Of a stretch of DNA of 64,000 nucleotides, positions 634 through 39,301 are shown piece by piece (within the stretch, counting starts at the first letter, position 1; every line of letters starts with the position of its first letter). Both the position numbers and the translations under genes were made by a program. Under the pieces are notes generated by a model that was not told the DNA's origin, did not search any database, and saw only the letters and a list, made by a program, of their open reading frames with translations. This DNA is from Gnetum montanum (Eukaryota; Plantae; Gnetophyta). The stretch spans positions 154,472 to 218,471 of the forward strand of contig MNCI01001743.1 in assembly GCA_015680685.1 (NCBI GenBank), given 5' to 3'.

Positions 634-3600
634 GGATGGGCACCAAGGCCGGATGGGTGGCCAATTGAATCCTTCCGGGAATTTGCAGATATTCTAGGTA
701 GCAATATCCTAGACACTTTCAACAACATGCTTAAGTAGCATCAGGTCCGTAGGGAAATTAATTGCTCCCACATCATCCTGATCCCTAAAATTGAAGGACC
801 TTCAAAGGCTGCCCACTGCAGACCCATTAGGGTCTATAACACCCTCCTTAGACTATTCACTAAACTTCTGGTCCCGAGATTGAGGCCTTTGATGCCACAT
901 TTAGTCCATCATAATCAAACTGGGTTTGTGTGGGAGAGGCTACTTCAGGACTAGGTTATTTTGTTGCATGAAACTCTTCACTCGCTGCGTGTTCAGCGCT
1001 TCCCCAGACTTTGTCTTAAGTTGGATATAACAAAAGCTTATGACTATGTTAGTTAGGAGGCATTACGGGCTATCATGGTCAAGAAAGGTTTTAGTCAAGG
1101 ATTTCTTGACTTATGCCTGCAAATTCAATCTTCAGCCACTTATTCCATTGATCTTGATAGGCTGCTCTAGGGTTTCTCTTCGCCAAGGCAGGGTCTTCAA
1201 CAAGGTGACCCATTATCACCATATCTATTCATTATGGTGATGGATACCATGCAGGATTACTGTCGTGCGAAAGGGGTACAAGGATTACAAATCAACAAAG
1301 GTGGAGTATATGGCAAAGCACTACGCTGATGATACAATGTTTTATACTCAGGCGTCAGTGCTACAAGCGAGAGCGTTGGATTGAACGTTGTTGGAAATGG
1401 CAAGAGAAATTGGGCTAGAGGTGAATAGGGCAAAGTTGGTGCTTTACACTGTTCATACCAACTCCAAGGTTGAGGTGTGTATCACACAAACACTAGGGAT
1501 GTTGCCAAGTACTTATGGCAACCAATATTTAGGGTTCCCCATGTTTGAATGGGGTCAGAAAAAAACTTGGATCCATGTTCTCAAACATATCCAACTACAA
1601 ATCAAGCATTAGACCATGCATTTTTTAACATGAAAAGGGCAAATCCTATTGGCTATGTCTATGTTGCCTACTATTGCCAGATTTATGTTGTCGATTACTA
1701 CCCCCTGCCCTCGAGCTCAACAATAAAGTTGATCAAACAATTCAAAGCTTCATTTGGTTTGGGGGGAAAGGGGGGAGGCATATCCATCTGGTAAGATGGG
1801 ATACAATCGCACAAACGAGGAAGGTGGGTGATCTTGGGATTTCAAAATTTGCGGACCTGGTGATAGTGAGACAGCAATAACTGGTCCATCGCCTGACACG
1901 ACCTAACACACAGCTAGTTCCTTGGATATGGATTATCCATCAAAAATATCACCAGTGGACTGCTACTCCACATGATTCGAGGCTCTAGTGATCGATGTGC
2001 CAACATGTCCACTACATGATGCAACTAGGGTGGTCTAATGTTCAACCAAAAGACATCTTTTCGAGGCAATTCCCTGCAGTTCCCGAGTGGCAACAAGTGT
2101 AGCAAGGATGCCTACCAGACAAAATCAAAGCATTCTTATGGCTTATTAATCATGTAGTGATGCTAGTTAGGGTGGAGTTAAGACGGCACAAATTACAAAT
2201 TCAGGACACTTGTCCAACATGTGGGTAGGCGACAGAAACTTGGTGACACTTGGCATTTGAATGCACGTTCAGTACTACAATGTGGTGAAGTGCCAGGATT
2301 AGACCATCGATTATTTTAAGCAAAGATTCTACAGCAACTGCTATTCTCTAGTGCTTGTGAAAGGTAGGTAACCCACTAGTTTTTGGGCAGGTGCCACTTC
2401 CATTGCTAGCACAAGCGGCTGCTAAAGGCACTAGGCTGTGGAGGGAAGTTGTGGCCACAATGGGAATGATGCCAACATTCAAGCCACATTGCCACCATTT
2501 TCAAGAAAACATGGAGTTGTGGTACCTAGTGCAATCGGTTGGCTAGGCAAGATTTTTGCCGCATTTGCTTGAGGATCCCACCCTGCCAAATGGCAAGTTC
2601 TTTGCCAACTAGCAAGGTAATTGCACAACATTTTGGGGGATTATGATCAAATTGTCTGAAGAGGCGTTGGCTAGGGCTCTAGAAGGGCAATTGACTAGTC
2701 AGTGTGTGGACCCAACGATGCGTGGGCTTCAGGAAGCTTAGCATTTCTTTCTAGGTCCATACCCTACAACAGTTAGCGAGCAAATTCCTAAGTCTGCTTT
2801 GCCACCATTGTGGTAGCTGGCAATTGAGCTTGTTGAAAGGTTTTTCGTGCAAACGGGTAATGTTTCGAAACTCCAAGGAGTCCATTTTGTGCTCTTTAAG
2901 TGTCTCAAAATGGGACAGACAGTGAATACTCTTGGATTTTTCCTTGTGTCATTGCGTCGAAGGCAACCCAAGAGACACTCGAGGCTTATCCTGGCTCTAT
3001 GGTGTGTGGCCCATCTTACACCCGTGATGCAGGAAATGAAACCAGCAAGTATGATGACCTACCATACAATTTACTAGAGATGCAAACTACTGCCAACTAC
3101 CCAACAGATGGAGGTTCCTAAAGGATCTATTGTCATGGCCCTTATGGCTACCAAGCAGCTTAGGCAAACCAATGATGCGCCACAAGACATGCCGCCACAC
3201 GTGGATTTGACTATTGTGAGGGCACAAGCCAAGGTGGAGAAAGAGGAGGCCACTAGTGAAGTGAGAACAAATGAGCATCGGGTTTGGGAGGCCAAATGGG
3301 AAGCTAGTGAGGTCACATTTCAACGGGAACTAGGGAACTACCCATACATGCGCATGCACATTAACCGTAATGTGACCTAGTCGAATCTAAGATGGCATAT
3401 TAGGCTTGCTTCCGCAAAGTTGCACCCTGATGGAAAAGGCTCTGAAGAAGAACAAGTGAGGAAGGCCAAGGCCTTTAAATCTTTTCAACAGGCGGTGGCT
3501 TTTGTGGACTCACAGGAACTCCACATGCAGATGGACATGCTACATGCTCAACTCCAGCCATATTGCCATTACACTCACCTTCCCCACCATCCCCACAATT

Positions 3601-3966
3601 TAGAGGATGAATGATTGTTTGCAACTGTTCGGCCCCCCTGGATGGGGGGTCTTTGCTTGTTTGTTTCTTTTGTTTTGGTTGCCTATGTTGATGGGAAGTC
3701 ATTTTGGCTGATGTCAACACTCGGTACACCAGTTGGTGTTGGCTTGGTGGGACATTGTTTGGTGCTTTAACATTTTAATGGTGTTTAATGTTTTAATGTT
3801 TGTTAGTCGTTGGAGTTAGGGTGGTCTTGGTTAACCCCATTTTGTTGGGGAGGACAGTGCTCCTCCCAGGTCTATGTTTTGTCTCGTTGATCAGGGTGTC
3901 TTCCCTAATTTTGTACATAATCTTCTTTGTTTTTTAATACAATCCTAAAAATTTGCTCAAAAAAAT
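632..3966 (+). mobile_element. 5'-truncated degenerate L1-clade LINE (copy 1): RT - zf-RVT - accessory domain - coiled coil - J-domain - 3'UTR - poly(A)
   Basis: APRPDGWP (~640), KLDITKAYD (~1018), QGDPLSPYLF (1201), YADD (1322), zf-RVT CPTC..H...C (~2210-2265), HPD 3423-3431, stop 3614, A-tail ~3959-3966. No TSD identified. Confidence 0.9.
3333..3614 (+). pseudogene. DnaJ J-domain plus short tail at the C-terminus of LINE ORF2 (copy 1)
   Basis: NYPYMRMHINRNVT*SNLRWHIRLASAKLHPDGKGSEEEQVRKAKAFKSFQQAVAFV; same reading frame as zf-RVT (2088) and the accessory domain (2460-3000), broken only by point stops. Confidence 0.8.
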
Positions 3967-4290
3967 ATAACATTACATTAAGCATGAACATCAACATAAT
4001 TTCATTATTTATACTCCCCTATACATTACAATAGGTTTTAGATGTAAGCTACACTGCAGGTTGTTTCTTTGTGTTACATAGCAATATTCAATATTCACCA
4101 TCAACTAAAACAAATGAGTTAAAATATGTCTAAAATCAACTACTTAAGTGATACAAAATAAGTTGAAGAATGCATTGTTGAGCTTCCTAAGAATGTGTTT
4201 CTCCTTGAAAGAAAAATGTGCACTCAAAGTGCTAAAAACCTTTAAACTACTAATGACACATCCAAAATGATGTATGCTCATTTCTTCTAC

Positions 4291-5585
4291 TTTTATTTTT
4301 TAAGAAGAATTTGGGGTTTGTATTAGAAACAGTTTGCAATGGCGCATGTACAAGAGTAGATAATTAAAAGGGGAGAAGAACCCCTTCCAATAGTGATATA
4401 CATGGGGGTGAGAACTCCCTTAACACTATCAAGGGCAATATACACCCCAGACCAACAAAACAAGAACAATCCTCAAGTCAGAAGACCCCCAAGAGCAAGA
4501 ATCAAAACCAAAATGTCTATGAAGTGTCCCTCTCCAACACAAAATGGGGACAAAATGGAGATAGAGGCAAACCCAGTAATCATATGCAATGGCCCTAGAA
4601 CCCAAAAAGAACCCCTAGTCAAAAGAAAACAGCAAAACATCCCCCACATCCAGCCCAAGCCACGTTAAAGTTGTCTTGCTAGTCATGTGCAGGTGCAACG
4701 GGCCCTTTCCTATGCATGAATAGCATGCAGCATTACCCAATGATACTCAATCGTGATGAATGTAGCTACCTGCAAGAATTCTTTATACTTTTCTTTGCTT
4801 TTCATGAGCTCCCCCAAATTGCCAGCCCCATCAAGATGAAATTTGGCCACATTTCTTCTAATGTATTGGTGCAAAGCATGCCACATGGCGTTTCGATTAA
4901 CATTCATGATAACATATGTGCAACGACCCATCTACAGCCAACAACAGGCATTGGCCTCATGTGCCTCATTCTGGCTTTTCCTCATTTGTTCTAATTCTTC
5001 CATGTCTCAAACCCATTGCTCCTATGCTTCTACAACCCTCCTCTAGTGTTCTTCTTCTAGACGAAACTCCTCTTTCATCTGCTTGCACAAAGCATCTTCC
5101 ATCTCACATCTTATAGCCGCCTCCCTTAGGTCCCTCTAGTGTTGTTCCTCCTTGGCAAACTTTGTACAGTGTTGGTCCTCTAGCTTAGCCTAGCATCTAT
5201 GATCATATTCCTACTCCTACCATTCTCCTTCCCAAGCAACTCTTTCCTCTGCATGGATCCAAGCAGCCATCTCTTCAGTGGCCCTAGCCAAGTTAGCCTC
5301 AAACTTGGCTTGCAATTCTCTACGGATATCTTTAGTATGCTACTGGCCCATCTTGTACAAGTTGGGTGATGGATTTGTAACCGATTCCAGCCAGTCAAAC
5401 ACAAAGCCCTTCCTGCCCACTCCTAGAGCCCCAGGCGCAGCTGGTGCTGAAGAGGAGGCAGCCCACTCCGCAGCCTGGTGCCACCTATACACCACTATAA
5501 AAGGTGATGGACAACAAGGAGGTGGATCCAACGGCTGAGCCACCCTCCACAATGCTAGAATCAGCCCCAAATGATGACCTTGACA
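4291..5585 (-). mobile_element. 5'-truncated LINE 3' end (copy 2): end of accessory domain, coiled coil, J-domain, 3'UTR, poly(A)
   Basis: GHHLGLILALWR (~5580-5545); Glu/Arg-rich coiled coil 5330-4960; J-like GRCTYVIMNVNRNAMWHALHQYIRRNVAKFHLDG..KYKEFLQVATFI (4931-4710); T-tract at 4291-4301. Confidence 0.85.
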
Positions 5586-6971: not shown

Positions 6972-8382
6972 ATGTTGGGCTGGAAACCAGGAGAGAGCAG
7001 GGGTTCGGGCAGTTCTAGGAAGTGCGGTGCGGATAGGGCGGGAGCAAGCGGCACCAGCAACACAGTTGAGGGCCAGGAGGAGGTAGGACTAGGTGAGGGA
7101 TCAGGAGCAAGGTTGGGCATAAATTATGGCATAGGGTCTGGTGAGGCTTCTGGTGCAGGGTCAGATTTGGGCTTTGGCAAGGTCAGTGGTGGGTATGGGG
7201 GTAGGGCTGCATGAGGCGTTCCACACCCTGCAAACACCCCCCCTCCCCCGCAGCCCCCACATGGTGCCCCGGGGCATGGTATTGAGGCTTGTATCCACTG
7301 TGAGGGTTCGATGCAGCTGAAAGTTAAAGCCCTCCCCAATGAGGGGCTGAAGACAATGAGTTAAGCCTGATTGGGAATACGTCTTGGCCAGCACCAGTCC
7401 CAAGCTAGATTTGGTTAAACAATGGATGGTCATGCATTGGGGGTTTTGCCCAATGGAGGTCCAGGGGACCTCTTATTGTTTGTTTTTCAATCTGTGTTAA
7501 ACCAAGATAAAGTTCTCCTAGGCGAGCCTTGGTTTTTTGGGGCCAAGGGCCTAGCCCTTGCACACTAGCACCCTAGTGCCCACAAAGAGCCAGATCTCTT
7601 TTCTAGGGCACTTGTGTGGATACGTGTCTTTGAGATCCCATGGGAGCTATGGATGACAGACTTTCTTAGGACATTGGCAGGGTTTTTTGGAGAGTTTATC
7701 ACCTTCGATTGTTTCACTTGCTCCATGGAAAGAATAGGCTATGCTTGCTTTTGCATGTGGCAATCGCTATCATTGTGAAATCTAACCAAGAGGTGGTCCT
7801 CGACCTTTTGACCAACGAGGAGAAAGTTCAAGTGGAATATGATAATGTTGTGACTGACAAACCTACAGTGACGAAACCCACATAAGCTAAGCATTATAGT
7901 GTCTACTACAAGGCTGGCCACTTGATGGCTGATTGTCGAGTGAAGCCAAAGGCCCCAAGCCCAAAGAAAACTGGAAATGGTTGGACAATTTGTACCAGGC
8001 AGGAGGGGGGGACAGGCTCAAGGTCAAAGACAAGGAGTGGATCCCTCAATGCCGCCTACCCTAGTGAAGGTTCCCCAAGGGGACTTGGGGAAGGATCTGT
8101 CAAGTTCCCTAGTACGAGTGGACCACAATCCCTAAGAGGTTGGGAATACCGCTTGGTGGATGGGTCTTCATCATGAGGGGGAGCACAATGCCATCCATGT
8201 TAGAGGTTACTGGGGGATGTGCCGATTCAAAAGGGGGATTTCCAATCTCGCCTAATTTTGGCAAGGTTGGGAGGCCATTGGGCCCTATGTCCCAAACAAA
8301 GAAGACATAGATGGAGACTAACCTGGGGGTCCAAACAACCCTCAGGGAGGTTTACAAAAAGCATTAAACTAGCAAAACATGA
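6972..8382 (+). pseudogene. LINE ORF1 (Gly-rich N-terminus, DUF4283-like, zinc knuckle), disrupted
   Basis: Plant L1 ORF1 motifs across frameshifts; ends ..VQTTLREVYKK.TSKT-TGA overlapping the ORF2 ATG. Confidence 0.75.
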
Positions 8383-11300
8383 GGACCCTCTCATGGAACT
8401 GCAAGGTGCAAGGTACTCCCTACAAAAGAAATACCCTCAAAGATTTAGTGTGTAGGGAACGCTGTGATGTAGTTTGCTTGCAAGAGACAAAGCTACTGCA
8501 ACAAGAATGTCACTGGTTATGCTAGCCCGGTTGGTAGAAGCAGTTTGTGGCCTGTCAAGGGATGGAAAGAGGCCTAGCCTCTTTGACATTGGCCTTTTGA
8601 GACCGTGCACATGTCCACATGGAGTATTACCATTCGCTTCCAACAAACCAGCATCTAGCTTACAAATTTCTACAACACCCAAAGATGGGAGGAGTAGCTG
8701 AGGGAAATGCAAAGGATTGCCCCCTGATCCTGGATAGGAGGCAATGGATTCTGGTAGGGGATTTCAACCAAAGATTGTATGCATGGGAGAAGTCAAATGG
8801 GTGGACCCAAGAGCCTCGTGGTGGTCTGCCATTCCTACAGTTTCTGGTGTCTCATGATCTAGTTGATATGGATATCAAAGATTGCTAGTTCAAGTGCAGC
8901 AACCGCAAAAAAGGTAGGGACCGAGTCATGACAAAGATTGATAGGGTGTGGGTCAACTCAGATATTCTGTTGAATCAGGGGATGAATGTTCATGGGAAAG
9001 AACAACTAGCTTTTGATCATAGGTCAATTCTATGCCAAGTGGGAACTCTGGTTTCGAGGGGGCCTACATCATTTCGTTTCGAATGATTTTGGCTTACTAA
9101 GTCATGGCTGCACCCAATGGTGGAAAGGATCTAAAGGAACTACTCGTCGCGGGTTGACACCAAGGAGTTTCTCAAGAGGGGGTTACACTTGCTAGGGTAG
9201 GAGATAAAGGCATCAAAGGTGGAGGAGAGGTTCTCTTTCTGATCCAACCGGGGGACGTTGCTACAACATCTGGCAGTGATTCAATTGGACTAGGAATTGG
9301 TTAGGGGTTGGATGACGCAGAAGGTGAGGTGCTAACAAAGCTTTAGAACCTGAACACTAAGGAGGAAGCTAAATGGAGGCAGCATAGGCATGCGCATTGG
9401 CTTAAGGAGGGGGATAGGAATACTTGTTTTTTCTTCGCAGCAACTAACTTGATGTGTCTCTCCAAAAAGATTCATAGTCTTGCTTTCTAGGGGAAATACA
9501 ATGGTTGGGAGGCAGGAGATCACCCAAGCCATTATGGAGTACTAGTCCAACATTTGGCAACGGAAGGAGACCATGCCTCTATCAATTCACATTGAAAAGA
9601 TTATGGATGAGGAGAACAACCAATGGTTACTAGAACCATTCACTCGAGAGGAGCAGGATGGGGCTCTTGCATCAATGAAAGTTGGGAAGGCGCCTGGGCC
9701 TAACAATTGGCCTATGGAATTCTTTAGAGCTTTCATTGATGTTCTAGGGGATAATCTATTGGATGCCTTCAACGCAATGCTAAGTTGGCAACAAGTCCGG
9801 AGGGAGATAAACTATTCCCAGCTCGTCCTTATTCCTAATACGGCTAACCCCATGGATCCTTCTCAATTCAAGCCTATTGGGGTGTGTAACACTCTCCTTT
9901 GCCTCTTTGCTAAGCTCTTAGTTGCTCGGCTAGGGCCTCTGATGTTGTGCTTAGTGGGACCGCAACAGGCAAGTTTTGTTAAAGGCAGGTTCATTCAGGA
10001 CCAAGTTATCTAGGTGCAAGAAGTGTTGCATTCACTAAGGGCAACCAATTACCTAGGCATGTGTCTTGAACTAGATATTACTAAAGCCTATGACACGGTG
10101 TCCTAGCACTCTCTCAAAGAAATCATGTTGCAAAAAGGCTTTCACCCACACTTTGTAGATTTATGCATACACATCCAAACGTTGGGGGCTTTTTCTTTGG
10201 ATCTGGAGGGGAAACTATGCAATTTTCATCCCCTGCCAGGGGGTTAAGACAAGGGGACCACCTTTCTCCATATCTCTTTATTTTTGTGATGGACACCCTA
10301 CAAACTTATTGTATGTTAGAGGGGGTTAGAGACTTGCATATTGCCTAAGTCAGTTGCCTGGTAGAGCACTACGCTGATGATACCAATTTATTCTCTTGGG
10401 TTGTTGTGTCCCAAGCACTAGCGATAAATAGGATGCTGCAACAAATGGCAAAGGAGATTGGCCTAGAAATTAATAGGGGTAAGGTTGCAGTGCACCTAGC
10501 CAACACGAATGCCCAAGTGAAGAGTCAAATTGTGCAACTTCTGGGGGTCTTGCTCGGCTTCACGAGGGACACTTACCTTGGGCTGCCTCTTTGCGATTGG
10601 CATCGAAGGCATGCATAGGTTGGCCTTCTTCAGAGCCTGCAGATATGGATTGGCCATTGGACAACTAAGTTCCTGACTCGGGTTGAGAAGTCACTATTAG
10701 CAACGTTTGTGCTTTCGATATGACTCATTATATAGCTTCCGTGGCCTCCGCCTTGCTAATATCATTCAAAAGGTTGATCAACTGATAAGGAATTTTACTT
10801 GGTCAAGGGGTAAAAGGGAAGATCGCATGCATCTTGTTAACTAGGATACAAGAAGCTGGGAGTCTTGGTATCATCCAATTCCATGATATTATTGCTATGG
10901 GGTATCAAGGCCTCCTTAATAGGTTGTTGAGGTAGGGCAACGGTGCCGCTCAATGGATTATAATCATGAACAACAAGTATAGACAATGGGAGGAGCTTGC
11001 ATGGGACTCTCATATCTAGCATGCCCTTTGTAGGCACGCACGGGTGGCTATGGACTCCAGGCTAGCAAGTGTGCCTCTCCAACAACTTATTAAGTCCAAA
11101 TATCTAGCGGTTAGGGGATGGCAAGGGATATGGAAGGGCCAAGTGCCAAAGAAAATAAAAACATTTATTTGGCCGGCAAATCATTTGGCCATTCCGCTTC
11201 AGGCAATTCTAAGATAGCAAGGGGTGAACGTGGCAGACATGTGTCCCCTTTGCATGGCTACGTCTGAAATGGTTGCTCACTTCATTTATTACTGCATGTT

Positions 11301-12910
11301 CACTATCAGTGTTTGGTGGGCTGCGAATGTTCAACCCTTGTTGAAGTTTGATGAAAATTCCAAAGTTGCAACAGTGTTGTTGTCCATCTAAAAAGCGTGC
11401 AATCACTAGGTTTTTGGCAGTGTGTTGTTGCACCACCGACACAGATTGTCACTATGGGTACCAACTTTGGCGGGAGGTGCATTCAATGATGGGGGTTACC
11501 CCCACTTTTGAGCCAACATGTGTGGGCTACAAGAAAACTTAGTCTTGTGGAATATGGTCTCGCGAGTGGGGTGGGCTGACCTCCAAACCATGCTCTAGGG
11601 GGAGCCAAACCTAGAGAATAGTCAGTTCTACACAAACTAGCACGAGGACTACACACTATTTTGGGGGGATGCAGATTGGGTTGACGAAGGAGCTGATTGT
11701 GGAGTATTTGGGGGTGTTGGCGAGACGTGAAATGGTCCTACCCAAGGGTCGTGGCCTCCAAGATGTTGAAGATTTTTTTTAGACTAGTGCCCAAAATAAG
11801 AAGCAGATAAGTTCCCAAGTCAGCACTCCAACCAATATGGCAAGACGCCACCAAGCTAGTGGATAGGTTTTTTGTGCACTCTAGCAACGTCAGAAAGTTG
11901 CAAGGCATGCACTTTAGTTTCTTCAGGAGCCGAAGGAGGGGGTATGTAGTCAACCTGTCACTTTTCACTCTCGCAATGCTACGGTGTCAAAGGCAACCAA
12001 GATGATTCTGGCTCTGTGGCGGGCATCTTGGCCTCCCATCCCCCCACAGCTGAGGGGCACTCCGTTTCAGGCTATTTATGGGTGAAGGTGGTCACAATGC
12101 GCTCCGCTAGTGTTGGTGGACCTAACAAAGGAACCTGAAGAGCAAGAGGCTCGATCGAGGTCTTTGGAGTCACATGCCGAGGAGGGTTCCAGGATGGTTG
12201 CAATGGAGGTGCATGTTGGGCCTATGGAGCTACATGTTGGGAAGAGCTCAGGGGTGATGTCACCTAGGATCATTGATGATTCTGCGCTCCCAGATCTTGA
12301 AGCATTGCTAACTAAGGCAATGAAGGAGGCAACTACATAGGCCCAGGTGGAGGAGAGAGCCATCTAGGAGGCCAAGGGGTAGACAAGGGAGGAAGAGTTC
12401 CAACAACAGTTGGAACAAACCGAGCGACTCCATGCTAAAGAGTTTAAGGAGGAGAGAAGGCATCAAGATGTGGCTGAAGTGATGACACTAAATGAGATAG
12501 AGGTTGCGCTCCGGCATTGAATTCGAAAGTAGCTCTAGGAAGAGGTGCGACAGTAGGAGGCCTAGGAGAGGAAGGACCAAGAGGCGTTGGAGGCAGCTCA
12601 AATCTAGCAGCAGCAAGATCAAGCACATGAGCATAATGCTCCTTCCTAGCTCATTAACATCGGCCAAAATACGTCATGGAAGGCGCTACAATGGTACATT
12701 CACCGTGGGGGGGGGGAAGCTACACCCGAATGGAAGGGGGGGTGCGGAGGAGTGCACAAGGAAAGCGGAGGCATTTAAGGAATTTCAACAAGCCACTACT
12801 TTTCTGGATACTGAGAGGCACCGGATTGTGCTCAACACTATCCATAGCCAAGAGCGGGCAATCTACTATTGCACAGGCCTTCCTTGCCATATATTGGCTA
12901 TGGGCCTAAG
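8379..12910 (+). pseudogene. LINE ORF2: APE endonuclease - RT - zf-RVT - accessory domain - coiled coil - J-domain, disrupted
   Basis: Ordered motifs as in the element entry; J-region GGKLHPNGRGGAEECTRKAEAFKEFQQATTFL (HPN 12723-12731, CCG-AAT, plausibly from CCG-GAT). Confidence 0.85.
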
Positions 12911-13399
12911 GTGTTGTGTTCTTTTTGGGTTTTGTTTTTTCTTTATTTGAACTAATGTCAGTGGGTGTGTCCTAGGAATCTCTTGGATCAAGACACCAAT
13001 TTTGAACTAATTAGGGATATCCGAGTTGGAGGGGTTTTTGTCATGGAAAAGGCTGAGGGCTGTGGGGGGTTTTCTTGTTTTGAGGGATATCAGGGGAGCA
13101 ATCTCCCCTCATTTTGTGATTGTACAGAACTCTTATAAATTCCTTTTGTGATTAATTTAATGACCCAAAATTTTTTCAAAAAAAAAAAAACAATCAAAAG
13201 GAACATTATCCCATGGTAAAAATTTCTTATAAATTTTATTCCATATTACATAATCTTCCAAAGCACTAAAATTTAAAGTAGGAACCTAATCACTTGCAAA
13301 ATTAACAAACAAAAAACCCAAAAAAAAAACTTTCATTATTTTTTAGGGTTTTTATATTAAGAGGACCAAAATTTACATACAAATCATATCAACAAAACC

Positions 13400-16300
13400 A
13401 GTCTCTGAAAGGCTACTGTGTGGGTAGTGGAGCATGGGTGAGCAAGTGAGTACAATGGAAGCAGGAGTAATTGGGGCTGGTGCAATGGGGGCAACTGTAA
13501 TGGGAGTAGGTGTGGTCAATGAAGGATGCAAAGGAGGCGACCATTTTGAGGGAACGAAGAGTGGCAATGAGAGTCTAGGCTACAAAGGGGGAGGCAAGGC
13601 AACAAAGCGGACACCATGTATGGCAATGGTGTAGGTTTTGCTAACAAGGGAAGCTATGTAGGGGCAGCCAATTGTGCGATTTTGGGCACAGGTTCAAAGC
13701 AAAGACCAAATGATGGCCAAGGTGGGTAGTCTACAGGGCCGTGGAAGCCTAGTATGGGGAGAGTGGATGAGGTCTATTGCTCAGGAGAGGGATTGAGGCT
13801 CAAGATGCATGCACTTGCCTCGGAGGAAGTCCACACGATGAGATGCAACCTCATTGGGAGGTGCGTCTCAGCGAAAGCCAAGCCAAGGATGAAGGCTATG
13901 AGGCATTGGGCTATTTCGTCTTGGGAAATTTTAGGTTTGGAAATATGCATGCTTATAAGAGATTTGCTCCTTTCCATTTTTCCAAATCTAGATGCCAAGG
14001 ACCGAATCCTGCTAGGAGGGCAGTGGTTTCTTGGAGCCAGAGGACAAGCTCTGTTGCCTTGGCATCTAAGCATCCACCATGCGACAGACTTATTCTTGCA
14101 AGCACCAGTCCTGGTCCAAGTGTCGGGTATGCAATGGGAGTTTTGGACTATAGAATTTTTACATACACTCACCGAGTTCTTTGGGGAGTTCATAATTTTT
14201 GACAAATTCATCATAATGAAGGAAAGAATGGGCTTTGTTTGATTGTGTGTCTAGCGGTCACTCTCCTTAGAGGACCTCCTAAAAGAGGTTACTCTCAACC
14301 TGCCAACTAGGGAGGAAGTCTTGGGGTGGAGTACATGGGATCTAGGAGCTACGGGATATGTGAAAAGGGGAATCATTCTACTAAGGAGTGCTGCTATTGG
14401 AAAAAGGAGCGACTTCAACAACGGCGGAAGGGAGTGGATGGGTACACTGTCATTGGCCCAAAAAAGGGGAGGGTTGCTAAGGGGTTGGTGAAGCTGAAAA
14501 TCCCTCAGGGTGTTTCATCCCCCCTTGCCCCTCAAGGCCCTCCTCCATCACCCATCCCCTCCCCCATCCTCCCCACTTCAATCATCACCTAGACCCTCCC
14601 TCACCCCTAAACTATGGGGGTCAACTAACAGAAAGGGGGCACTCAGGAACTGGTTCTCCCCTTTGGGAGACTTGGCAAAAACTAAGGAAACACCCCTAGC
14701 TATCGCAATAGACTCATCATTTCAAGTCCCACCCTTCGATGACTGGATATGGGCAAAATGGGATTCCTCCAAACCACTAATGGAGCCCGTCCATTAGGCA
14801 TTACAAGCAAAGGAGGTCTTAGGATTTGATGTAGTATCTAAGCCAAGGAAGATGAGCCAACCCATAGGCCTTGAATTGAGTTTGAAGAAAACAAAGAAGG
14901 AAATTGATTTGGGAACCCAGACCACCCTAAAAGGAGTGTACCAGAAAAGGTCTACCAGTACACCATGAATATCATTTCATGGAATTGCAAAGGATAGGGT
15001 AACCCCTATAAACGCTATACCCTGAAAGAGTTAACGAGAATCGGGAAGGTTGATGTAGTGTGCCTGCAAGAGACCAAGTTAACTAGGGCACAAAGGCAGG
15101 CTATGGAAAGGCCATGATGGAAGAAGATTTTTGTGGATTCAAGAGGGAAGGTAGGAGGACTCACCACTATTGCTCGGGTCCCTATACAACTATTGGACTC
15201 CTCGAGATGGAGTATTATCACCTTCATGCCAACACAGGGCTTATGGTTAATGAATTTCTATGGGCTGCAAACCCTAGAGGCCCATCTGGGTGAGCTTTAT
15301 CATATTGCTGAGAAAATTCCAAATCGAACAACTTGGCTTTTCATTGGTGATTTTAATTAGAGCTATTCCCTTAGAAGAAGACGGGGAGATTCAACCCCGT
15401 TGCTAGGAAGCTAGGAATCCATAAGGAATCTGCAAACCTTCGAGCTTGTAGATGTGGGGGTCTCCAAGAATAGGAGAGTTTTCTCCAAGGGTCTGTTCCA
15501 AAAATAGGGACGGACAAGTGCCAAAGTCCACTCTCCTGCCCCTCTAGCAAGAGGCAGCGGAGGTCGTTGAAGGTTTCTTTGTGCAATCAAGAAACATACG
15601 GAAACTCCAAGGGATCCATTTTTCTTTCCTCTTATGCATGCAACTCAGTCGCCTATCAAATCTCCCAAAGTTTTGCCTGGCACCACTCCAAAGAAGCAAA
15701 AGAGGATGACATTCAAGCCTAATTTTGGCCCTCTAGAATGCAGCGCAGCCACAAGAACCTATCCTAGCCAAATCCCTCCAGATTAGGATGATGTATGTGT
15801 GCCACCATCTCTCCCTCAAGGGTGAGTCCTCCACCTTAGTCAAGCTATTTTCAAAGGTGCAACCAAAGGAGGGGTGCCAATAGTGGATGATAGGAACCTT
15901 AACTAGCAAGGATCTTCTGCATATCAACCGCTGCTCCATGACCATATCAAATTAGCAGAGGAGCAAGTCCAACAGGAGCTCCAAAGCCAATTTAAGATAG
16001 ACCTGCTTTGGGCCATCAAGGAGGTGAGGGCCCATGAACAAGCACACTGGGAGGAAGAGTTAAGCAACTGGGGGAAGGCAACCAAAATCAGATTCCAAAA
16101 GGCAAAACAATAAATGCAAGAAGCCACCATGGAGGAACAAAGCCAAAGGGAGTTGCAGGAGGCCACCAGCAGGAGTGTTCTGGAATAAGTGCTCACGATG
16201 CAACTCCAGGAGGATTTATGCCGCGAGGAATAGAAGCAGTTACAACAGGAAGAGGAGGAAGGAGCATAGTGCACCAAGGCCCTCCTTGAGGAAGAATAGC

Positions 16301-16585
16301 TTCAGCAAAGCATATGGCTACATATGAAACCAACGCACAGCATTGGTTTAGCAAGGGTCATTGTCCCTATGAAGTTATGGGGGTTAACCACAATGTCTCA
16401 TGGGCCAGTTTGAAAAGGCACATCTGGAAGGCTTCAATGAAGTTCCACCCTGACAAGGCCTCCATTGTGGAGGCCCAACAGAACCGCGAGGCCATGTATA
16501 AGGAATTCCAAGAAGCAACAAATTTCGTTGCTACATAGCAGTTTCAAGCAATTCTAGATGCAATCCATAGCTAGGAAAGAGTAAT
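13400..16585 (+). mobile_element. Internally deleted LINE (copy 4): ORF1 plus partial endonuclease fused to accessory domain, coiled coil and J-domain; 3' end lost
   Basis: DUF4283-like ORF 13754-14242; knuckle (GICEKGNHSTKEC); ORF2 ATG 14965 (MNIISWNCKG), CLQET, GDFN; jump at ~15455 into GLQE..FFVQSRNIRKLQGIHF; J-domain 16314-16538. The 5' boundary is approximate. Confidence 0.85.
16314..16538 (+). pseudogene. Best-preserved DnaJ J-domain of the LINE (copy 4)
   Basis: HCPYEVMGVNHNVSWASLKRHIWKASMKFHPDKASIVEAQQNREAMYKEFQEATNFV fits the J consensus PYEVLGV...LKKAYRKLALKFHPDK...FKEIQEAYEVL; HPD at 16446-16454. Confidence 0.88.
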
Positions 16586-19500
16586 CTTGTAGAAGAATAT
16601 CTAGTCCTAGATGAAGCATCCTTTGATGAATCTCGTTTGTTGTGCACCCACCAATTTTCGCATAAGTGGTGCCAATCTTTGGACAAGAATCTTCGTGAAA
16701 AGTCTCAGCAGTGTATTACACATCCCAATTGGTTGAAATTGGGAGGGACTCATGGGGTTTGAGACCTTAGGGATGAGCACAATGTGGGAGTCGTGCCTCA
16801 CCTGCTAACATTGAAAAATCAAATTAAAAGCATCAAGGATATTGCTACCCAAGATGTCTACAAACTCCTTAAAAATTTCAATCAACCAACCATCAAGACC
16901 CAAGGTGTTTTTCATTTTTTTCAAGATGCCATGGCCAATTGCAGTTCACCCATAGTGAAAGGGACGATCAGGTTATTATTTTCCTCTATTCCCACCACTG
17001 ACTAGATTGGAGCTGAGACAGGCAAGGTTCTCTTGTAGCTCCAAATATCAACCCAGTATTCTTGCATAATTTCAGTAATATCAGCAAGACTAGTGAAGCT
17101 TTCTCCCTTGTTTATGAGATGATGAATCCTTTTGGACCCATAGTTGGCTTTCACCTTGACAAAGAAGAACCTGGTATTCTGATCATCATCCTTCAACCAC
17201 TGGACCCTAGACCTCTACCACCAATAAATTTCCTCCTCAGCAAAGATCTCCTAAATCTCCTTCAGCACCTCTTGCTCTTCTTTAAGTAGCAGGTCCCCTT
17301 GTTCCTACTTGGCCTGTATAGCAAAGAGCTTCATTCTCAAAGTTGGGTTGATTGCTTTGAAGGAATATGTTTCTATCGTCTTCTTGGACTTAATCACTCT
17401 CTTCAGCCTGAGCAGCCCTTGCTTCAAGAAATCACGAAGATCCATTTGATTTGGATAACTAGCCCAAATGTCTTCAACCAGTGGCCTCAACTAGGGTTTA
17501 GAAAACCATGACCGCTCAAACCTGAAAGGAAAAGACCCATGAGGATAAGGTGTGTCCACCTAACACACCAGTGACCTGTGATCAAAGGTCTACCTTTCCT
17601 AACCTAAGGCAACAATGTCATGGTTCAGGAAGAACTTGGAGCTAACCCAAATCCTATCAATACAAGTCATAATCCACTCTCTCCCCTAGCATTGGTTGCA
17701 TCAAATGAAGTTGCAACCTTTAAGCTCCATGTCAACCAAATCATGATCCTACAAGAATTGCAACAAGAATCGACAACCGAGAGGATCATCAGCATCACCC
17801 CCAGACTTCTCCCAACTATGAAGGCATTTGTTGAAATCCCCAATAATGATCCACTATTGTTTGTTATGGATCAATGAGGCAATGTGTCTAAGTTCCTAAA
17901 GTCGGGCTTCCCATCTTTGCGGTCTATAGAAGTTTGTGAGCCATATCCTAAGGGAGACCAAGAAAATCATCACACTCCAAGTGAAGGAGTCAACTAAGGT
18001 CAATGGCAACCTAGAGAGCATAACCAAGCCTCCCACCTTGCCTCTGCAGGCAACAAAATGGAGTTCCCATCCTGACCACTGCAACCAGAGGGATTCCTAG
18101 AGTTGCATTTTGGTTTCCTACAAATAGATGACATTACATTCTTCTATATGCATGATATCTTTCAGGGTATTGCATTTGTAGGGTGTACCCTAGCCCTGCA
18201 ATTACATGAGAGGATTCTCATGGTTTACTTGTGGACCTTTTCTAGTAGACCTCCCTCCAGGTGGTCTGAGAACCCAAGTCAACCTCAAGCTACGATTTTT
18301 TGGAACAAGCCACCAACCCTAGTGGATGCCCAGCCTTGTTTGGGTCGAAGGCCATAGCGAAACTACCTTCTTGAGCAACTCCCAAGATGTCCGTCATCTT
18401 CAACAAGACAAAGACCCATATTGTTGAAATCCAATCCATCAGGGAAGACCTCCCCCTTGCCCCTATGGGGTGCAACTAATGGGTGTGTCCCCCTCGAGGC
18501 TTGTGCAAGGGGCCAAGGTAAACATCCTTCTAGGTGAGACGGTAGGAGGCTACATTTCCGTAGTAGGACTAGACCGAGTCCGACCATGTCGTCCCACCAA
18601 AGTCCACCCCTCATCAGTTTCAGTCTTCAATGTAGGGTTCTTGGGCTTGATCCTGCAATCTTTAGTTGTGTGGTTGTTTTTGCCATAGACGACATAGGGG
18701 AATTCTGAGGGGATATGTGTTGCAGCTAATCGATCAACTGGGACATTCTCATATTCCATTGTCACTATTTCCTCTCCAAACAGAAAATCCAACATTATCT
18801 CCTTCACTGGATCCTTCGAAGACAAAGACCTCCAAACACAAAAACGTGTGTCTCCCATATGCGCCTTGGTCTCTATAAATTTGTCAAAGCTGATAAATTC
18901 CCCAAAAAAAACCCCATTGTTCATTGTTTGAAGCTCCTAAGACACATCCAAGGCCCTAATCCAAACAAGAACCATAGAAAATAGATTTGGGTCTCTATGG
19001 ACCCTTGGCCACCAATGTGTAAAGGCAAAGCCCTTTGGCTCTGAAGAACCACAAACCACCAAACAAAACCTTATCCCTGGAGATTGAAAAACAAAGAGAA
19101 GCATATCGTCCACCAGGCTACAAATCTCAACTCCATTAACACCCTAGTTTCTATAAGAGCCTTGAATTAAGTTGGGCTAGTTTGTTGCTCAGCATGCACA
19201 ATATGCATGTCAACAAGCACCTCAACATTAGCATGCCTCACAATATGCCCTTTAATCTTAGCTCCATCTATATGCTACATAGAGGTAGAGGGTCCATCAC
19301 ACTATCTAGGCCACCAAATATTCATTTTGATATTTTCATCATCCCTTGGATTATCCACAGCTGGATTCCATACCAATATTGAAGCACAATGCTAGGTGAT
19401 GCTTGTCTTTGCTAAGCATTGGTGTAGCCCATGCAGCTTTGAAACATTCTTGAACTAGGTGAAGAAACACTATACCAACTCAACAGGCCGCTGCCAATCT

Positions 19501-21462: not shown

Positions 21463-24400
21463 TCTACATCACTTAATTTCCCATTTTCTCTTGATTTTGT
21501 TGATTTTTTTATGATCAAGATATTACCAATTCTCAATGCAATAAAATTTTACCAACTACGTTTCCACCAAAAAATTGCAGTCTTTCAACCTGATCAACAT
21601 AGACGTATGATACCCTTAATTAGCCAAAATCATTTGGATTTCCGATGCTTATTGCTAAGGATCATATTTACATTAAAATGATTCACGAGTCCAAGTCTCC
21701 CTAATGCCACTTGGAATCATGCTAAAAACCCTGTATATTCATTTTGTGTCAGGCAGTACAGCCAAACTGCATAGTATCACCAAGTTTTACATGTGCACAC
21801 ATGTGTGCGTGTATTATGGTCCCAGCCATTATTTTTGGCTAACTATGCACAAAGGACCATCACTCCAGCTGTTTGTTTCTCAAGTTGACCTAGGTTCAAG
21901 CTTAGGTGTAACCACTTAAAAGCGCTTAGGCTTTTGTTCATCAATGACCCTCCCAGGACTCCACTTTGGCAAGATGAGCATTGAACCTCTAGGTGATGAT
22001 CCTTTGTGCACCTATGGTTGTATGATGGAAGCAGTACCATCAAGCCATAGGTTGGTTATCTCCAGCAAATAATCAACGAGTACCACGACCAGAATGTTTC
22101 TGTTTACTCCCGTGCTGTATTAATAAATACTGAGCAAGTGCAAAGTTTGTTGGTATACTGTTAATATTTGGTAGTTTACGCAAACTAGTTCCCAAATTGC
22201 CCTTTTATCTTGAAAAAGTCCAAAATATCTGTGCACTGAATGAATTCATGAATTATCCCGCAAAGTTCAGACCCTGAAATCTCATTTCCTGGTGGACCAA
22301 AATGTCAGAAATGAGAGTCTCATTAAAATAGTTAGTAGTCATCCTATGTNGGGCTCTGATTTCGTCGGCGAGCCTGGCCTTGGCCGCCTCCGTCATGAGG
22401 TCGTGATGTCTAGCCCGCTCTTGTTCCCTGGCCTGGAACTGGGCCTCCAGTTCGTTGCGGGCCTGGGCCAGGGCCTCCGCCCATTTTGCCTCCCACTCCC
22501 TCCGTTCCGCCGCCCGGGCCTCCGCCACCAGCTTTTGCCGTTGCTCTTCATTCCAGGAGGAGGTCGTGGGCGGAGGAGAGGGCGCAGGGGGGGCCGAGGT
22601 CGTCCCGGCCGGCCACTCGGGAGGGCGCCGCGCCCGCGGGGCCCGACGACCCCACCCGAAATGAACACCACCGGGACAGGCACCCCCCCCCCCCCCCGAC
22701 GACCCGGGGGAGCAGCTCCCCCGAGGGGGGGCAGGGTGGGGGGGCTGCTACCTCCCCTCCGCCCCCCGCCACAGAGCCAAAATCACCCCCGAGTGCTTAC
22801 CCCGGCGTTTGAGGCGGAGGGCCTCCTTAAAATAGAGGGGGAGGTTGACCTGGCCACCGGTCTTCAGGCAGCGGAGGAAGGTGAAATGCAGGCCCTGCAG
22901 CTTGGACCCGTTGCCAGACTGGACGAAGTACCGTTCCACCAGGTCCGCCCCCCGGGCCCAGAGGCGAGGGAGAGCAGATCTGGGCACCTGTCGACTGATG
23001 GTCCTTGGGATGGTCCCACGGAAGAACATCCCCGCATCCGTGAGGCCGTGGGTAGACGGGAGGATGGTTTCCCCGGCGATGGGGGTCCCCGGACAGCTGG
23101 CGATAGCTGCCTCCGTGACCCAGATTTCCCGCCCCCTGAAGAAGGTGCGGTCGTTGACCCAGTTGGAGAAGAAGGCGTCATCAGCCAGATCTGGGTCCCC
23201 CACAAGTCGCTGCAGAGGAACATCCCATCCGCATTGACTCACCAGCTGCCAGAGCTCCTCGAATTCCTGAAACCTGGCACAGTCCGGTTCGTACGTGGGC
23301 GTTTTTCCCATGGCGTCCTCGATTTCTTTCCACGCGCAGGACGCCTGCCAAACCAGCCGCTGCGGGGGAGGGCGCCGTTGCTGCCGAAAGACGAGATTGT
23401 TGCGGGCCTTCCAAACCGTCCATAGAAGTAGGGCGGCCCACGAATCCCCAGTTGCATGCCTCGGGGGGGGCACAGCGGCCGCGCACCACACGTCGCGCGT
23501 GCGGGGACAGTCGCGCACGAAGTGTGCAACAGTCTCCCCCGCCCCCCCGCATGTCGGACAAGTGTCCGCCTCGAGAAGCCCCCGCCGCCTCAATAAATTC
23601 CTGACAGGTAACGCGTCATGGTGCATCAGCCAGAGGAAGAATTTAATTTTTTCTGGCAGTCTTCCTTTCCAGACCTGCCGCCACGTGCCGCTGCGGGGGT
23701 ATTTTGCCGTCATGATGGCGCGTGGCTCAAGATGCGCCCAGCCCGAGGTCTGCATGGCGCATGCGTGCCGGGCCACCACCTGCCAGGACTTGGAGTCCCG
23801 CGTCGTCACATCCCAACGGATGTATTTGTTATTAATGACGTCGATCCAGGGGGCCGGGTCCCGAGGTGGCTGCGTAAGTCGGAGGACGAGCCTTTGCCGC
23901 CCCAGCATTAACTCATCCTCGAAAGTCGTGACACCCAGCCCGCCAGCGTCCCGCGGGCGCGCCACCTGCTCCCAACGGACCAAGTGCAGCTTGCTCCCCC
24001 CTCTGCCCCCCCCCCCACACGAAGTGCCGAACCAGGGCGTTAACGGCATTGATGACGTTTCCAGGGGGGGCGGCCACCGCCGCGACGAAACGCACGGTGG
24101 CCACGAGGATCCCGGTGGCCACCAGAAGACATCCCTTGCGGGTCAGGAACCTATTTGCCCAGTGGCTGGCCCGTCGTTCCATCTTCTCCAGAAGGGGGCC
24201 CCACGTTGCGGATTGCCCCCATCGAAAAAGGGGGATGCCAAGGTATATGTCGGTGGGAGACCCTGGCCTAATGTCCAAAGTTTGGGTCACCCTCGTTTGG
24301 ACCGGCTCGTCCACGTTCACGAAATAGACAGCGGACTTTGCCCTGTTGACCGCCAACCCCAGCTCCGCAGCCAACCGATCCAGCGCCAAATTAATGCATC

Positions 24401-25653
24401 GGGCCTATGGGACTGCCGCCCTACTAAGCAGCATCGTGTCATCCGCATAGTGCTCCGCCCGACAGGTCACCCCCGCAATGTTCAGCCCATCGACCCCGGA
24501 TGTGCAACAGTAATGTTGCATCAGGTCCATGGCAATGATGAAAAGGAGGGGAGAGAGTGGGTCCCCTTGCCTCAGTCCCCTCCCAGGAGACGCAAGGCCC
24601 CACAGCCTCCCCCCCACGTTGAAGGAATAGCCCGCCGAGGATTGCATGTGGATGCATAAACGGGTGAACTGCGGGTCGAAACCTTTATGCTGCATGATGG
24701 TCTGCAGAGCTTCCCAACTAAGGGTGTCGTAAGCCTTTGTGATGTCCAGCTTGAGACAAAGGCTCGTCTACATCACTTAATTTCCCATTTTCTCTTGATT
24801 TTGTTGATTTTTTTATGATCAAGATATTACCAATTCTCAATGCAATAAAATTTTACCAACTACGTTTCCACCAAAAAATTGCAGTCTTTCAACCTGATCA
24901 ACATAGACATATGATACCCTTAATTAGCCAAAATCATTTGGATTTCCGATGCTTATTGCTAAGGATCATATTTACATTAAAATGATTCACGAGTCCAAGT
25001 CTCCCTAATGCCACTTGGAATCATGCTAAAAACCCTGTATATTCATTTTGTGTCAGGCAGTACAGCCAAACTGCATAGTATCACCAAGTTTTACATGTGC
25101 ACACATGTGTGCATGTATTATGGTCCCAGCCATTATTTTTGGCTAACTATGCACAAAGGACCATCACTCCAGCTGTTTGTTTCTCAAGTTGACCTAGGTT
25201 CAAGCTTAGGTGTAACCACTTAAAAGAGCTTAGGCTTTTGTTCATCAATGACCCTCCCAGGACTCCACTTTGGCAAGATGAGCATTGAACCTCTACGTGA
25301 TGATCCTTTGTGCACCTATGGTTGTATGATGGAAGCAGTACCATCAAGCCATAGGTTGGTTATCTCCAGCAAATAATCAACGAGTACCACGACCAGAATG
25401 TTTCTGTTTACTCCCGTGCTGTATTAATAAATACTGAGCAAGTGCAAAGTTTGTTGGTATACTGTTAATATTTGGTAGTTTACGCAAACTAGTTCCCAAA
25501 TTGCCCTTTTATCTTGAAAAAGTCCAAAATATCTGTGCACTGAATGAATTCATGAATTATCCCGCAAAGTTCAGACCCTGAAATCTCATTTCCTGGTGGA
25601 CCAAAATGTCAGAAATGAGAGTCTCATTAAAATAGTTAGTAGCCATCCTATGT
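21463..25653. repeat. 887-bp near-identical direct duplicate (21463-22349 = 24767-25653) flanking an N and a LINE fragment; probably two haplotypes
   Basis: Constant offset of 3304 and about 5 substitutions seen; first copy ends exactly at the N (22350). Confidence 0.9.
22351..24766 (-). mobile_element. Young GC-rich 5'-truncated LINE copy (copy 7): RT C-half - zf-RVT - accessory domain - Pro-rich - coiled coil (3' part lost in gap)
   Basis: LKLDITKAYD, GLRQGDPLSPLLF, HYADD, YLGIPL, CPTCGGAGETVAHFVRDC, LWTVWKARNNLVF. One stop (24405) and frameshifts at G/C homopolymers; CpGs retained. Confidence 0.92.
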
Positions 25654-37362: not shown

Positions 37363-39301
37363 TATTGAGGACTGAGAATGTAGATCAAGGATTGAATAAG
37401 TTCCCCAATTCGAACAACCAAGACAGCCAAAACTACACATAGATTTACGTAGTTTCCCAACTTAGGTATGTCCACCCTCAGAGGGTAGAATCTTTGCACA
37501 TCTTCGAACTTTGTTCCTTCATGATGAGTGGCGAGGTACCCCTACACTCAACCATACGAATACGAATGTCTCACGTGCGATCCGGTCAAACTCCAAGGAC
37601 TAAGTGCTTACGTCCCTTATGGAACACTTAAGGTTAATCAATCATTGTCTTCCCAGACTTACTTGTATTGTCGCGGTTGTATGGTTAAGTAAGTCTGAGG
37701 TATATGATTTTTATAACTTTTATCTTTTTATCCTATGCTAAGAGAGGAAAGGGTGAAGAGACTACATAACTAACTTTCACTAACTAAGCTTTGATCGTCT
37801 TAGCATCAATATCCATTCCCACTTGCCGTACACACCATGAACCAGTGCAACGCTATTGGGATTACCAAATGCTATTCGTTACAGGGTTACCAAGCGTCTC
37901 ACACGTGCTCGAAGCGGTCGTATTGAATGCGCTTAACTAGGAGTTGAGGGCTAAGAGAGATTAATTATCTAAGAAATCATTTAAGCATTTTACATTAATT
38001 AAATCCTAATTAGCTTAGTCCATGCACTGGAAGGTTTATTAGAAAGTTCGTCTTTATTTCCGTACACAAATGTGTGCTCAGGTATAATTTGCTCGAATAA
38101 AGATCCATTCACTTTGAGACTCTTACTGCGGGCACATGGAAATTATTCTATCTCTGGAATGGTAAAACTGCCAGAGTTTAGCTAAGGGTCTAGATCTAGA
38201 TGATCTTACAAGGGAAAGCCGCCTCTTATTTATAGACAAGGAGACAGGCTATGATATCGTGACACGATATCGCAGGGGCTGACGCGATATCGAGACCCAT
38301 GCAACATTGCATCCCATCACTTCAAAAATGTGGTTTAGAGGGCACCACAACCTTTACAAAGTTTGAGCTCCACACATAGTGTTTTCTTGCAGGAAACATA
38401 CTCAACCTTGCAAGGTTCCAACAAGCTCAAAATGTGGTTTCAAGGATCCAACAACCTTTATAGTGATATGAGCTATACACGAAGTGCTTTCTTGTTGGAA
38501 ACATACTCAACCACGCAAAGTCCCAACAAGTTCACAAGATGCCTTCTCACAAGAAGCACATCAACCCCATATAGCTACAAAGAGAGAGAAAGAATCAAGG
38601 AGATAGTGTAACTATAATTTACAAATTCCTTGCAATTAAGCTCACACAAAACAATTCACAAATGATTAAGGATTAAGGAACACAACAAATTTACTTGATG
38701 CAGACAATGAATATTCCAATGAATAGTGCTTTTTCTTTTCACAAGGATCCTAATCAATTTTATAACCTTTTACTTTCTAAATATTCCTCGAAATTCATGC
38801 AATGGCTAGGAAACAACTAGTTGGGTTGTCTCATTGAAAACAAGCCACTTGCAAGTGGGAAATTCCACTGAAAATTAGGACGCTTCACTTAGGACATCCT
38901 ATTTGAGACATCTTAGTAGTAATTGGGATGTCTAGTGTTTTTTTGGGATGTTTGGCCTAAAATTAATCCTTCATCCCTAGGACATTTGGTAATCTTTTGG
39001 GACGTCTAGGCAAATACCAAAGCATCTTTGTTTGGCTTATAAGCTTCATGCATCCTTGACATCTTGTAGTCTTCGTTTTCCTATTGAGACTTCTTATCAT
39101 CTCAAATTGGAAACTTAACTCTCATCTTGGTCTCAACTTGCTATTTGTCCCAATCTCTTATCTTATTACCATTTAAGCTCTTGACTTGATCTTATGTTCT
39201 TGTCATCATCGTGATTTTGTCTTTTCCAAGTCCTACAAGATCACAAGCACATTTTCCACAATCTCTATTTTCTAAGGTTTTGACATACTAAAAGGTCAAC
39301 A
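37363..39301 (-). mobile_element. Probable Copia-like solo LTR in a TA tract, carrying a nested Gypsy solo LTR
   Basis: T(A)TTGA...TCAACA termini; GATTTACGTAGTTTCCC..TATGTCCAC motif typical of reversed Copia LTRs; interrupts the second unit of a local duplication (36810-37250). TSD ambiguous. Confidence 0.45.
37522..38319 (-). mobile_element. Solo LTR of the nested (non-autonomous) Athila-like family
   Basis: TG...CA termini; perfect 5-bp TSD CTTCA (37517-37521 / 38320-38324); highly similar to 51181-51979. Confidence 0.93.

Follow-up and report, generated by a model that had tools for sequence, protein, structure and literature searches.

A family of plant LINEs in a 64,000-nucleotide stretch of Gnetum montanum DNA (the window) probably encoded a second open reading frame (ORF2) that ran without interruption from the reverse transcriptase (RT) region through a zf-RVT zinc-binding domain, an accessory domain, a linker, and a coiled coil to a C-terminal J-domain. 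We put the probability of such a single ORF2 at about 65%. The ancestral product would have been a single protein of approximately 1,400–1,500 amino acids carrying a predicted VANC-like domain together with an Hsp70-recruiting J-domain.

Decayed LINE copies in the window

The first 32 kb of the window contain several decayed plant LINE copies, of which the following features were analysed.

640–1700, plus strand: copy 1, RT and post-RT region of ORF2, 5'-truncated and frameshifted (RT motifs in shifting frames)
1707–2070, plus strand: copy 1, post-RT region in which the single frame starts (gapless alignment to copy 4 from 1761)
2073–2285, plus strand: copy 1, zf-RVT zinc-binding domain (Pfam PF13966, E 2.3e-11, 44.6 bits, above the cut-off)
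2460–3005, plus strand: copy 1, accessory domain from a conserved Met (43% identity to copy 4; Transposase_32/Athila-like lead; predicted fold VANC21-like)
3006–3330, plus strand: copy 1, linker (single TAG, at 3075) followed by a shortened coiled coil that bears WEAKW (same frame; WEAKW also in copy 4)
3336–3614, plus strand: copy 1, C-terminal J-domain (HPD at 3423–3431; single TAG at 3378; terminal TGA at 3612)
3615–3966, plus strand: copy 1, T-rich 3' UTR and A-rich tail (sequence inspection)
4686–5579, minus strand: copy M, 5'-truncated, with the last motif of the accessory domain, a stop-free linker, coiled coil, and J-domain in one frame
7400–13190, plus strand: copy 2, near full-length and decayed, with DUF4283 ORF1, APE, RT, zf-RVT, accessory domain, coiled coil, and J-domain
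13600–16600, plus strand: copy 3, internally deleted, with DUF4283 ORF1, the accessory-domain C-terminus, coiled coil, and the clearest J-domain (16302–16580)
22351–24766, minus strand: copy 4, young, 64% GC, from RT to coiled coil; an assembly N cuts it off before the J-domain

Copy 1 extends over approximately 640–3966 on the plus strand, and its 5' truncation falls inside the RT. A tandem array of nine copies of a 15-bp unit (497–630) lies directly 5' of the truncation point, and copies 1 and M are arranged tail to tail near 3960–4300. The 5' part of a minus-strand LINE (approximately 16.8–19 kb) and an interrupted LINE copy (approximately 28–32.3 kb) are also present. Together, at least seven related LINE pieces lie between 640 and 32300, possibly as a result of clustering or of a target preference.

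Judged by its domains, copy 1 represents a dead member of a family of plant L1-clade LINEs, the chassis of which is that of an ordinary plant L1-type LINE. A DUF4283 ORF1 was found upstream of ORF2 in copies 2 and 3 (E 5.7e-10 and 7.8e-11, respectively) as well as in L001 (E 2.4e-21), a diverged LINE described below; copy 1, being truncated, lacks this ORF. The ORF2 order APE, RT, zf-RVT is present in copy 2 and L001, with zf-RVT also found in copy 1, and the RT of copies 2 and 4, which is homologous to that of copy 1, matches Pfam RVT_1. A-rich 3' tails and 5' truncation were seen among copies 1, 2, and M. The family therefore resembles plant L1-clade LINEs in its DUF4283 ORF1, Exo_endo_phos, RVT_1, zf-RVT, A-rich tail, and 5' truncation, whereas it differs from them in that zf-RVT is followed by the accessory domain, coiled coil, and J-domain in place of RNase H. 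No Pfam match to RVT_3 or RNase H was obtained after zf-RVT in copy 1. A survey of plant L1 elements describes DUF4283 in ORF1p and RNase H as an addition to ORF2p (PMC5203782).

A single reading frame downstream of the RT in copy 1

The initial annotation held that several landmarks downstream of the RT in copy 1 share one reading frame interrupted only by point stops. This proposal was borne out for five of them, at 2088 (Trp), 2460 (Met), 2847 (GTG), 3108 (Met), and 3420 (L-H-P-D), all of which fall in a single frame (position mod 3 = 0). Over positions 1707–3611, the shared frame contains 15 stops in 635 codons; the two other forward frames contain 35 and 39. When the interval was shuffled with its dinucleotides preserved, 29.9 ± 5.1 stops were obtained, and 5 of 2000 shuffled sequences had no more than 15 in the best of their three frames. 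For 3006–3611 alone, the counts were 2 in the shared frame versus 12 and 15 in the others. A Pfam search with the copy 1 frame detected zf-RVT plus a weak DnaJ match (E 0.0022, on 3078–3611).

Alignment of copy 1 with copy 4 extended over 417 residues with zero gaps (1761–3011 in copy 1, 22.7–24.0 kb in copy 4; 169 identical), and copy 4 is stop-free across this block. Given the gapless match to a sequence that is open there, no frameshift is present within 1761–3011. Six of the 13 copy 1 stops in the block face a Trp residue of copy 4, and the stops look like products of decay because 6 of the 20 Trp positions of copy 4 were hit, compared with 7 of the 397 others. Such scattered stops would have arisen through C-to-T or G-to-A decay. 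The GC content is 64% for copy 4 (22351–24766) versus 45% for copy 1 (650–3614), a fall that is consistent with heavy methylation-driven decay after insertion.

A sixth landmark, the ORF that begins with TTG at 1674, had also been assigned to the ancestral frame and has to be removed from it. The segment from 1632 to approximately 1700 matches copy 4, as read by eye, in a different frame, so that the shared frame starts near 1700–1710 and the 1674 start lies upstream of the frame change. The RT of copy 1 carries frameshifts and copy 1 contains no APE, and the link from its frame back to APE rests on other copies.

Fusion of zf-RVT and the accessory domain in copy 4 and L001

The fusion of zf-RVT and the accessory domain in ORF2 is well supported at the sequence level, given that copy 1 aligns gaplessly to the open copy 4. 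The stop-free frame of copy 4 spans 464 codons; because of a frameshift at an 11-base run, approximately 418 of these belong to the true reading. A TAG at 24407 in this copy is private according to the read runs. Copy 4 is flanked by an 887-bp direct repeat (99.4%; 21463–22349 and 24767–25653), with a single N at 22350. The repeat looks like an assembly join between an empty allele and an insertion-bearing allele; copy 4 may therefore have inserted recently and be polymorphic, its 3' end having been lost in the assembly.

In L001, zf-RVT and the accessory domain also share a single frame. This LINE (34% GC) lies on a metagenome contig that was reached via P0001, one of the protein matches described in the next section, and shows the order DUF4283, APE, RT, zf-RVT, accessory domain, long linker, DnaJ. 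Its identity to the window copies is 24–28% in the zf-RVT/accessory region. The linker of L001 (5962–7500) comprises approximately 510 codons, is acidic and then basic, has about three times the length of that in the window copies, and gave no Pfam match. Because L001 keeps the domain order at just 24–28% identity, we regard the cargo as an old, kept part of the element, and the maintenance of this order across subfamilies at 24–43% identity argues for long-term selection. The first metagenome scan and the viral scan returned zero matches. Two other loci, L002 and L003, were dropped as chance matches within unrelated bacterial proteins.

Relatives and predicted fold of the accessory domain

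The Met at the start of the accessory domain (2460 in copy 1) is present in all four LINE copies that cover the site, at 24–43% identity. When 1.84 billion proteins were searched with HMMER, 10 matched, at lengths of 86–473 amino acids; none of these contained RT or J, the profile having 355 positions that probably do not cover the J-domain. P0001 and P0004 are of the LINE type, and the other eight matches are without RT; the accessory domain opens with the motif M-G-G...E-P in seven of these eight. The four named matches are from Taxus (two), Ginkgo, and Welwitschia. Word-indexed protein searches with the accessory domain returned zero matches among long or near-length proteins, a result that does not imply absence.

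Three of the 10 homologues match Transposase_32 (PF20167) weakly (best E 5e-5, 23.6 bits versus a cut-off of 45), and the accessory domain of the LINE itself gave no Pfam match to PF20167. An Atlas search gave Transposase_32/ATHILA leads at 0.83, and a second Atlas search gave no usable match. We therefore treat the LINE accessory domain as related to Transposase_32, not as a member of it.

A structure model of the copy 4 accessory domain, obtained with 20 sequences, had a pLDDT of 87.5. The best match among 48,161 solved chains was DNA-bound VANC21 (9lnk; rmsd 4.0 over 165 of 182 residues, 10% identity), with a Z score of 5.9, a range (below 8) in which similarity may reflect merely a common arrangement. 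The only other chain with a Z score of at least 2 scored 2.1. Foldseek likewise placed VANC21 at rank 1, with an E value of 3.0 and a TM score of 0.41. No Pfam match to DUF1985 or PMD was obtained for the domain, and its sequence profile did not retrieve VANC21 from the PDB sequences, with remote homology being possible. The viral fold library yielded zero matches at E 0.001 or better. The VANC21-like fold of the model is thus a good lead, not a membership. A two-sequence model of the copy 1 tail was unusable (pLDDT 38).

The C-terminal J-domain

The C-terminus of the element is, on the basis of its Pfam and profile matches, a J-domain. Scores for Pfam DnaJ (PF00226, cut-off 27.8 bits) were above the cut-off for copy 3 (32.4 bits, E 9.8e-08) and L001 (36.2 bits; 7555–7750) and under it for copy 1 (18.5 bits, E 0.0022). 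Among solved structures, J-domains were matched at E 3.5e-10 by a profile built from those of the LINEs, with DNAJC5 and E. coli DnaJ among the proteins hit. J-domains recruit Hsp70 via HPD, and this motif is intact after helix II in two of five sequences (copies 1 and 3), with the others reading HPN, HLD, and YLD, each of which derives from HPD by C-to-T or G-to-A transitions. The helical J-domain bearing HPD is the feature shared with J-domain (Hsp40) co-chaperones; unlike in these proteins, it is here located at the C-terminus of a predicted retrotransposon protein. A protein search with the J profile returned just seven ordinary DnaJ proteins, which likewise does not imply absence. J-domains also exist in viral proteins, such as polyomavirus T antigen.

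Continuity across the linker and alternative readings

The fusion of the coiled coil and J-domain to ORF2 across the linker is likely from the frames of the copies. The last motif of the accessory domain and the coiled coil/J anchor are in frame in copies 1, 2, 4, and M, and are related by a –1 frame in copy 3 and L001. A single frame leads from the coiled coil to J in copy 1, copy M, and copy 2 (up to J helix II). Copy M starts at the last motif of the accessory domain (E 3e-5 for the pair), shows 73 stop-free linker codons, and keeps its frame through J to the end of that domain; it contains 10 stops, nine of which are TAG. The spacing from ILAL to HPD is 715 nt in copy 2, 720 nt in copy M, and 721 nt in copy 3; it is 432 nt in copy 1, whose coiled coil is approximately 90 codons shorter and still in frame.

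In four read runs, the TAG in the linker of copy 4 appears as CAG, at 388/397, 884/972, 3472/3493, and 89/89 of the depth. This TAG is a private change from CAG, and stop readthrough at the site was rejected, since the family has CAG there. The four read runs gave no indel rows at 22690–22815. Loose ends of reads at 22351 in three runs extend the coiled-coil frame by 8–10 codons that are stop-free as judged by eye. A 15-base run of possibly incorrect length lies within the in-frame linker of copy 4, and another such run in this copy carries a frameshift. A plain start for an ORF3 is lacking in copy 4, which contains no in-frame ATG from the accessory domain as far as 22396, a point well inside the coiled coil.

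The strongest alternative is that ORF2 ends approximately 22–25 codons past the accessory domain, with the coiled coil and J-domain forming a separate ORF3 or being reached via –1 frameshifting or readthrough. The –1 frame of the tails of copy 3 and L001 speaks for such an arrangement, as do the contigs: among those listed, from 31 of more than 7,000 pieces, all four that span the linker are shifted relative to copy 4 (net –1, –1, –2, and –4), with three well-covered contigs being net –1 modulo 3. The –4 contig holds nearly all of the depth of run X9 across the linker, and a deletion at 22626 is common to runs of two organisms. The linker stops of three sequences also fall at similar positions (25 residues after ILAL in copy 1, 22 in copy 2, and 25 past the matching motif in the upstream frame of L001); these could be a mutated Trp codon plus chance or the true end of ORF2. 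Of 18 variant rows, 9, 8, and 4 were synonymous when read in each of the three frames, without a clear preference for one of them. On the other hand, four of the six copies are in frame, copy M is open throughout the linker, and the young family is without a stop at the copy 4 site and without an in-frame ATG. Moreover, the shifts occupy different positions in copy 3, in L001, and in the contigs. Decay most often produces frameshifts through one-base deletions, long contigs of a high-copy family favour diverged, dead copies, and Trp codons became stops at 6 of 20 sites. We thus consider a separate or recoded ORF3 unlikely and prefer the uninterrupted ORF2.

The frame might also be continuous while the main product was a separate cargo protein, its translation beginning at Met 2460 on an RNA that was subgenomic or spliced, and the fusion to ORF2 incidental. 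The retention of this Met in all of the LINE copies covering it, at 24–43% identity, would fit such a protein, as would the fact that the closest database homologues are RT-free and mostly open with M-G-G...E-P; a combination of domain and coiled coil is described for VANC and Athila accessory proteins in PMC13547354. In the open copy 4, however, the stretch from zf-RVT to the Met is stop-free, and we regard separate initiation as improbable. Still further removed is the notion that the tail is a functionless passenger, a host gene fragment acquired through a single 3' transduction and in frame by chance. Every copy examined is indeed broken and yields no intact product, but the domain order is repeated across subfamilies at 24–43% identity and in L001, the spacing is conserved, read runs from several organisms contain the family in multiple copies, and the shared frame is depleted of stops in 3006–3611 (2 versus 12 and 15). 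A passenger origin is accordingly given very little weight.

For the single ORF2, which had been proposed to run through to the J-domain, the zf-RVT/accessory portion is well founded in copy 4 and L001, and the junction joining the accessory domain to the coiled coil is likely rather than proven. A conserved break between zf-RVT and J, which would contradict the proposal, was not found in copy 4 or L001 up to the end of the accessory domain; the linker is in frame in four of six sequences and shifted in two. None of the sequences examined is an intact copy open from APE through HPD, and none is open from RT to J. Protein searches found no full-length protein of the RT-to-J kind. The suggested ORF2 length of roughly 1500 amino acids agrees with copy 2 (8379 to approximately 12920) and less well with L001 (approximately 1900 amino acids) and with the shortened coiled coil of copy 1.

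Proposed origin and function of the cargo

We propose that the element acquired everything from Met 2460 to the end as one gene, comprising a whole accessory gene (domain, linker, and coiled coil) plus a J-domain. The captured gene would have been of the type found in plant transposon accessory proteins, with a DNA-binding domain, a disordered linker, and a coiled coil. It would have joined the element behind zf-RVT, the place of RNase H in some plant L1s according to PMC5203782. Frameshifts may gather in the linker because tail-less copies retain a working RT core, and sublineages could in this way inherit a broken tail while the RT core works.

In linker sequences of three copies, we noted short hydrophobic-acidic motifs of the LVDLT or VDLT type at 3198–3212 (copy 1), 12110–12135 (copy 2), and 15872–15890 (copy 3), which resemble SUMO-interacting motifs.

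With regard to function, PMC5735166 describes VANC21 as binding a short DNA motif and causing hypomethylation, and leaves open the route that follows binding. According to PMC13547354 and bioRxiv 2024.09.27.615353, VANC structurally resembles PMD/MAIN, and coiled coils are the predicted means by which VANC and proteins with the Athila domain oligomerise. Given these properties of VANC21 and of the VANC and Athila proteins, together with the HPD of the J-domain, we propose that the tail would bind element DNA and bring in Hsp70. The VANC-like domain would be the part that binds a DNA motif within element copies; oligomerisation would fall to the coiled coil, and the J-domain would bring host Hsp70 to strip or remodel silencing complexes at these copies. 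Such counter-silencing would be the most likely function of the cargo, at somewhat less than an even chance. Hsp70 recruitment for ORF2p folding or RNP remodelling would be the next most likely function, with insertion-site targeting as another alternative.

Comparison with known systems

With VANC of VANDAL (MuDR) elements, the copies described here share a coiled coil after the domain, and the fold predicted for the domain aligned to VANC21 over 165 of 182 residues. They differ in that the host element is a non-LTR retrotransposon, the domain is fused to ORF2 and joined to a J-domain, and the likeness consists of a predicted fold at 10% identity. Weak PF20167 matches among the homologues and the Atlas lead at 0.83 connect the domain to Transposase_32 (PF20167) and Athila ORF1-like (PF03078) proteins, which, in contrast, are separate additional ORFs of LTR retrotransposons; PF20167 is related to Athila ORF1 in the account given by PMC11728184. 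Insect R1 LINEs provide a parallel for a captured domain at the C-terminus of a LINE ORF2, in their case a viral SF1 helicase for which counter-silencing is discussed in PMC4686597, and differ in clade, host, and cargo.

Known additions to ORF2 include RNase H in plants and the viral helicase in insect R1. Literature searches outside subscription journals and Repbase found no description of a LINE-encoded J-domain or VANC-like domain. The term "DnaJ" has 0 occurrences in the main text and two of the three supplementary files of the L1 survey (PMC5203782), and "transpos" and "reverse transcriptase" have 0 occurrences in a J-domain survey. An old, still multi-copy LINE lineage with counter-silencing built into its RT protein, in which a DNA-binding domain of the VANC/PMD fold and a J-domain that hijacks Hsp70 would remodel the silencing complexes of the host on new insertions, is a possible but rather doubtful interpretation. 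If true, it would be the first description, in a non-LTR retrotransposon, of an anti-silencing factor of the VANC/PMD fold and of an Hsp70 co-chaperone encoded by the element itself. A LINE with VANC-like and J-domains would carry anti-silencing proteins beyond DNA transposons to non-LTR retrotransposons, and Hsp70 recruitment would offer a possible answer to how anti-silencing follows binding, the step left open in PMC5735166.

Other repeats in the window

Two features that each coincide with a single N (49116–49524 and 54497–54593) are probably assembly artefacts, namely a perfect inverted repeat of 191 bp and a tandem duplication of 48 bp. LTR-like repeats are present at 37522–38017, 45311–45808, and 51181–51678, as well as at 30.5, 41.4–42.3, and 60.4–61.4 kb, and a Retrotrans_gag fragment is located on the minus strand at 49571–50020. 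These repeats and the gag fragment identify the region from 30.5 to 61.4 kb as one of decayed LTR retroelements.
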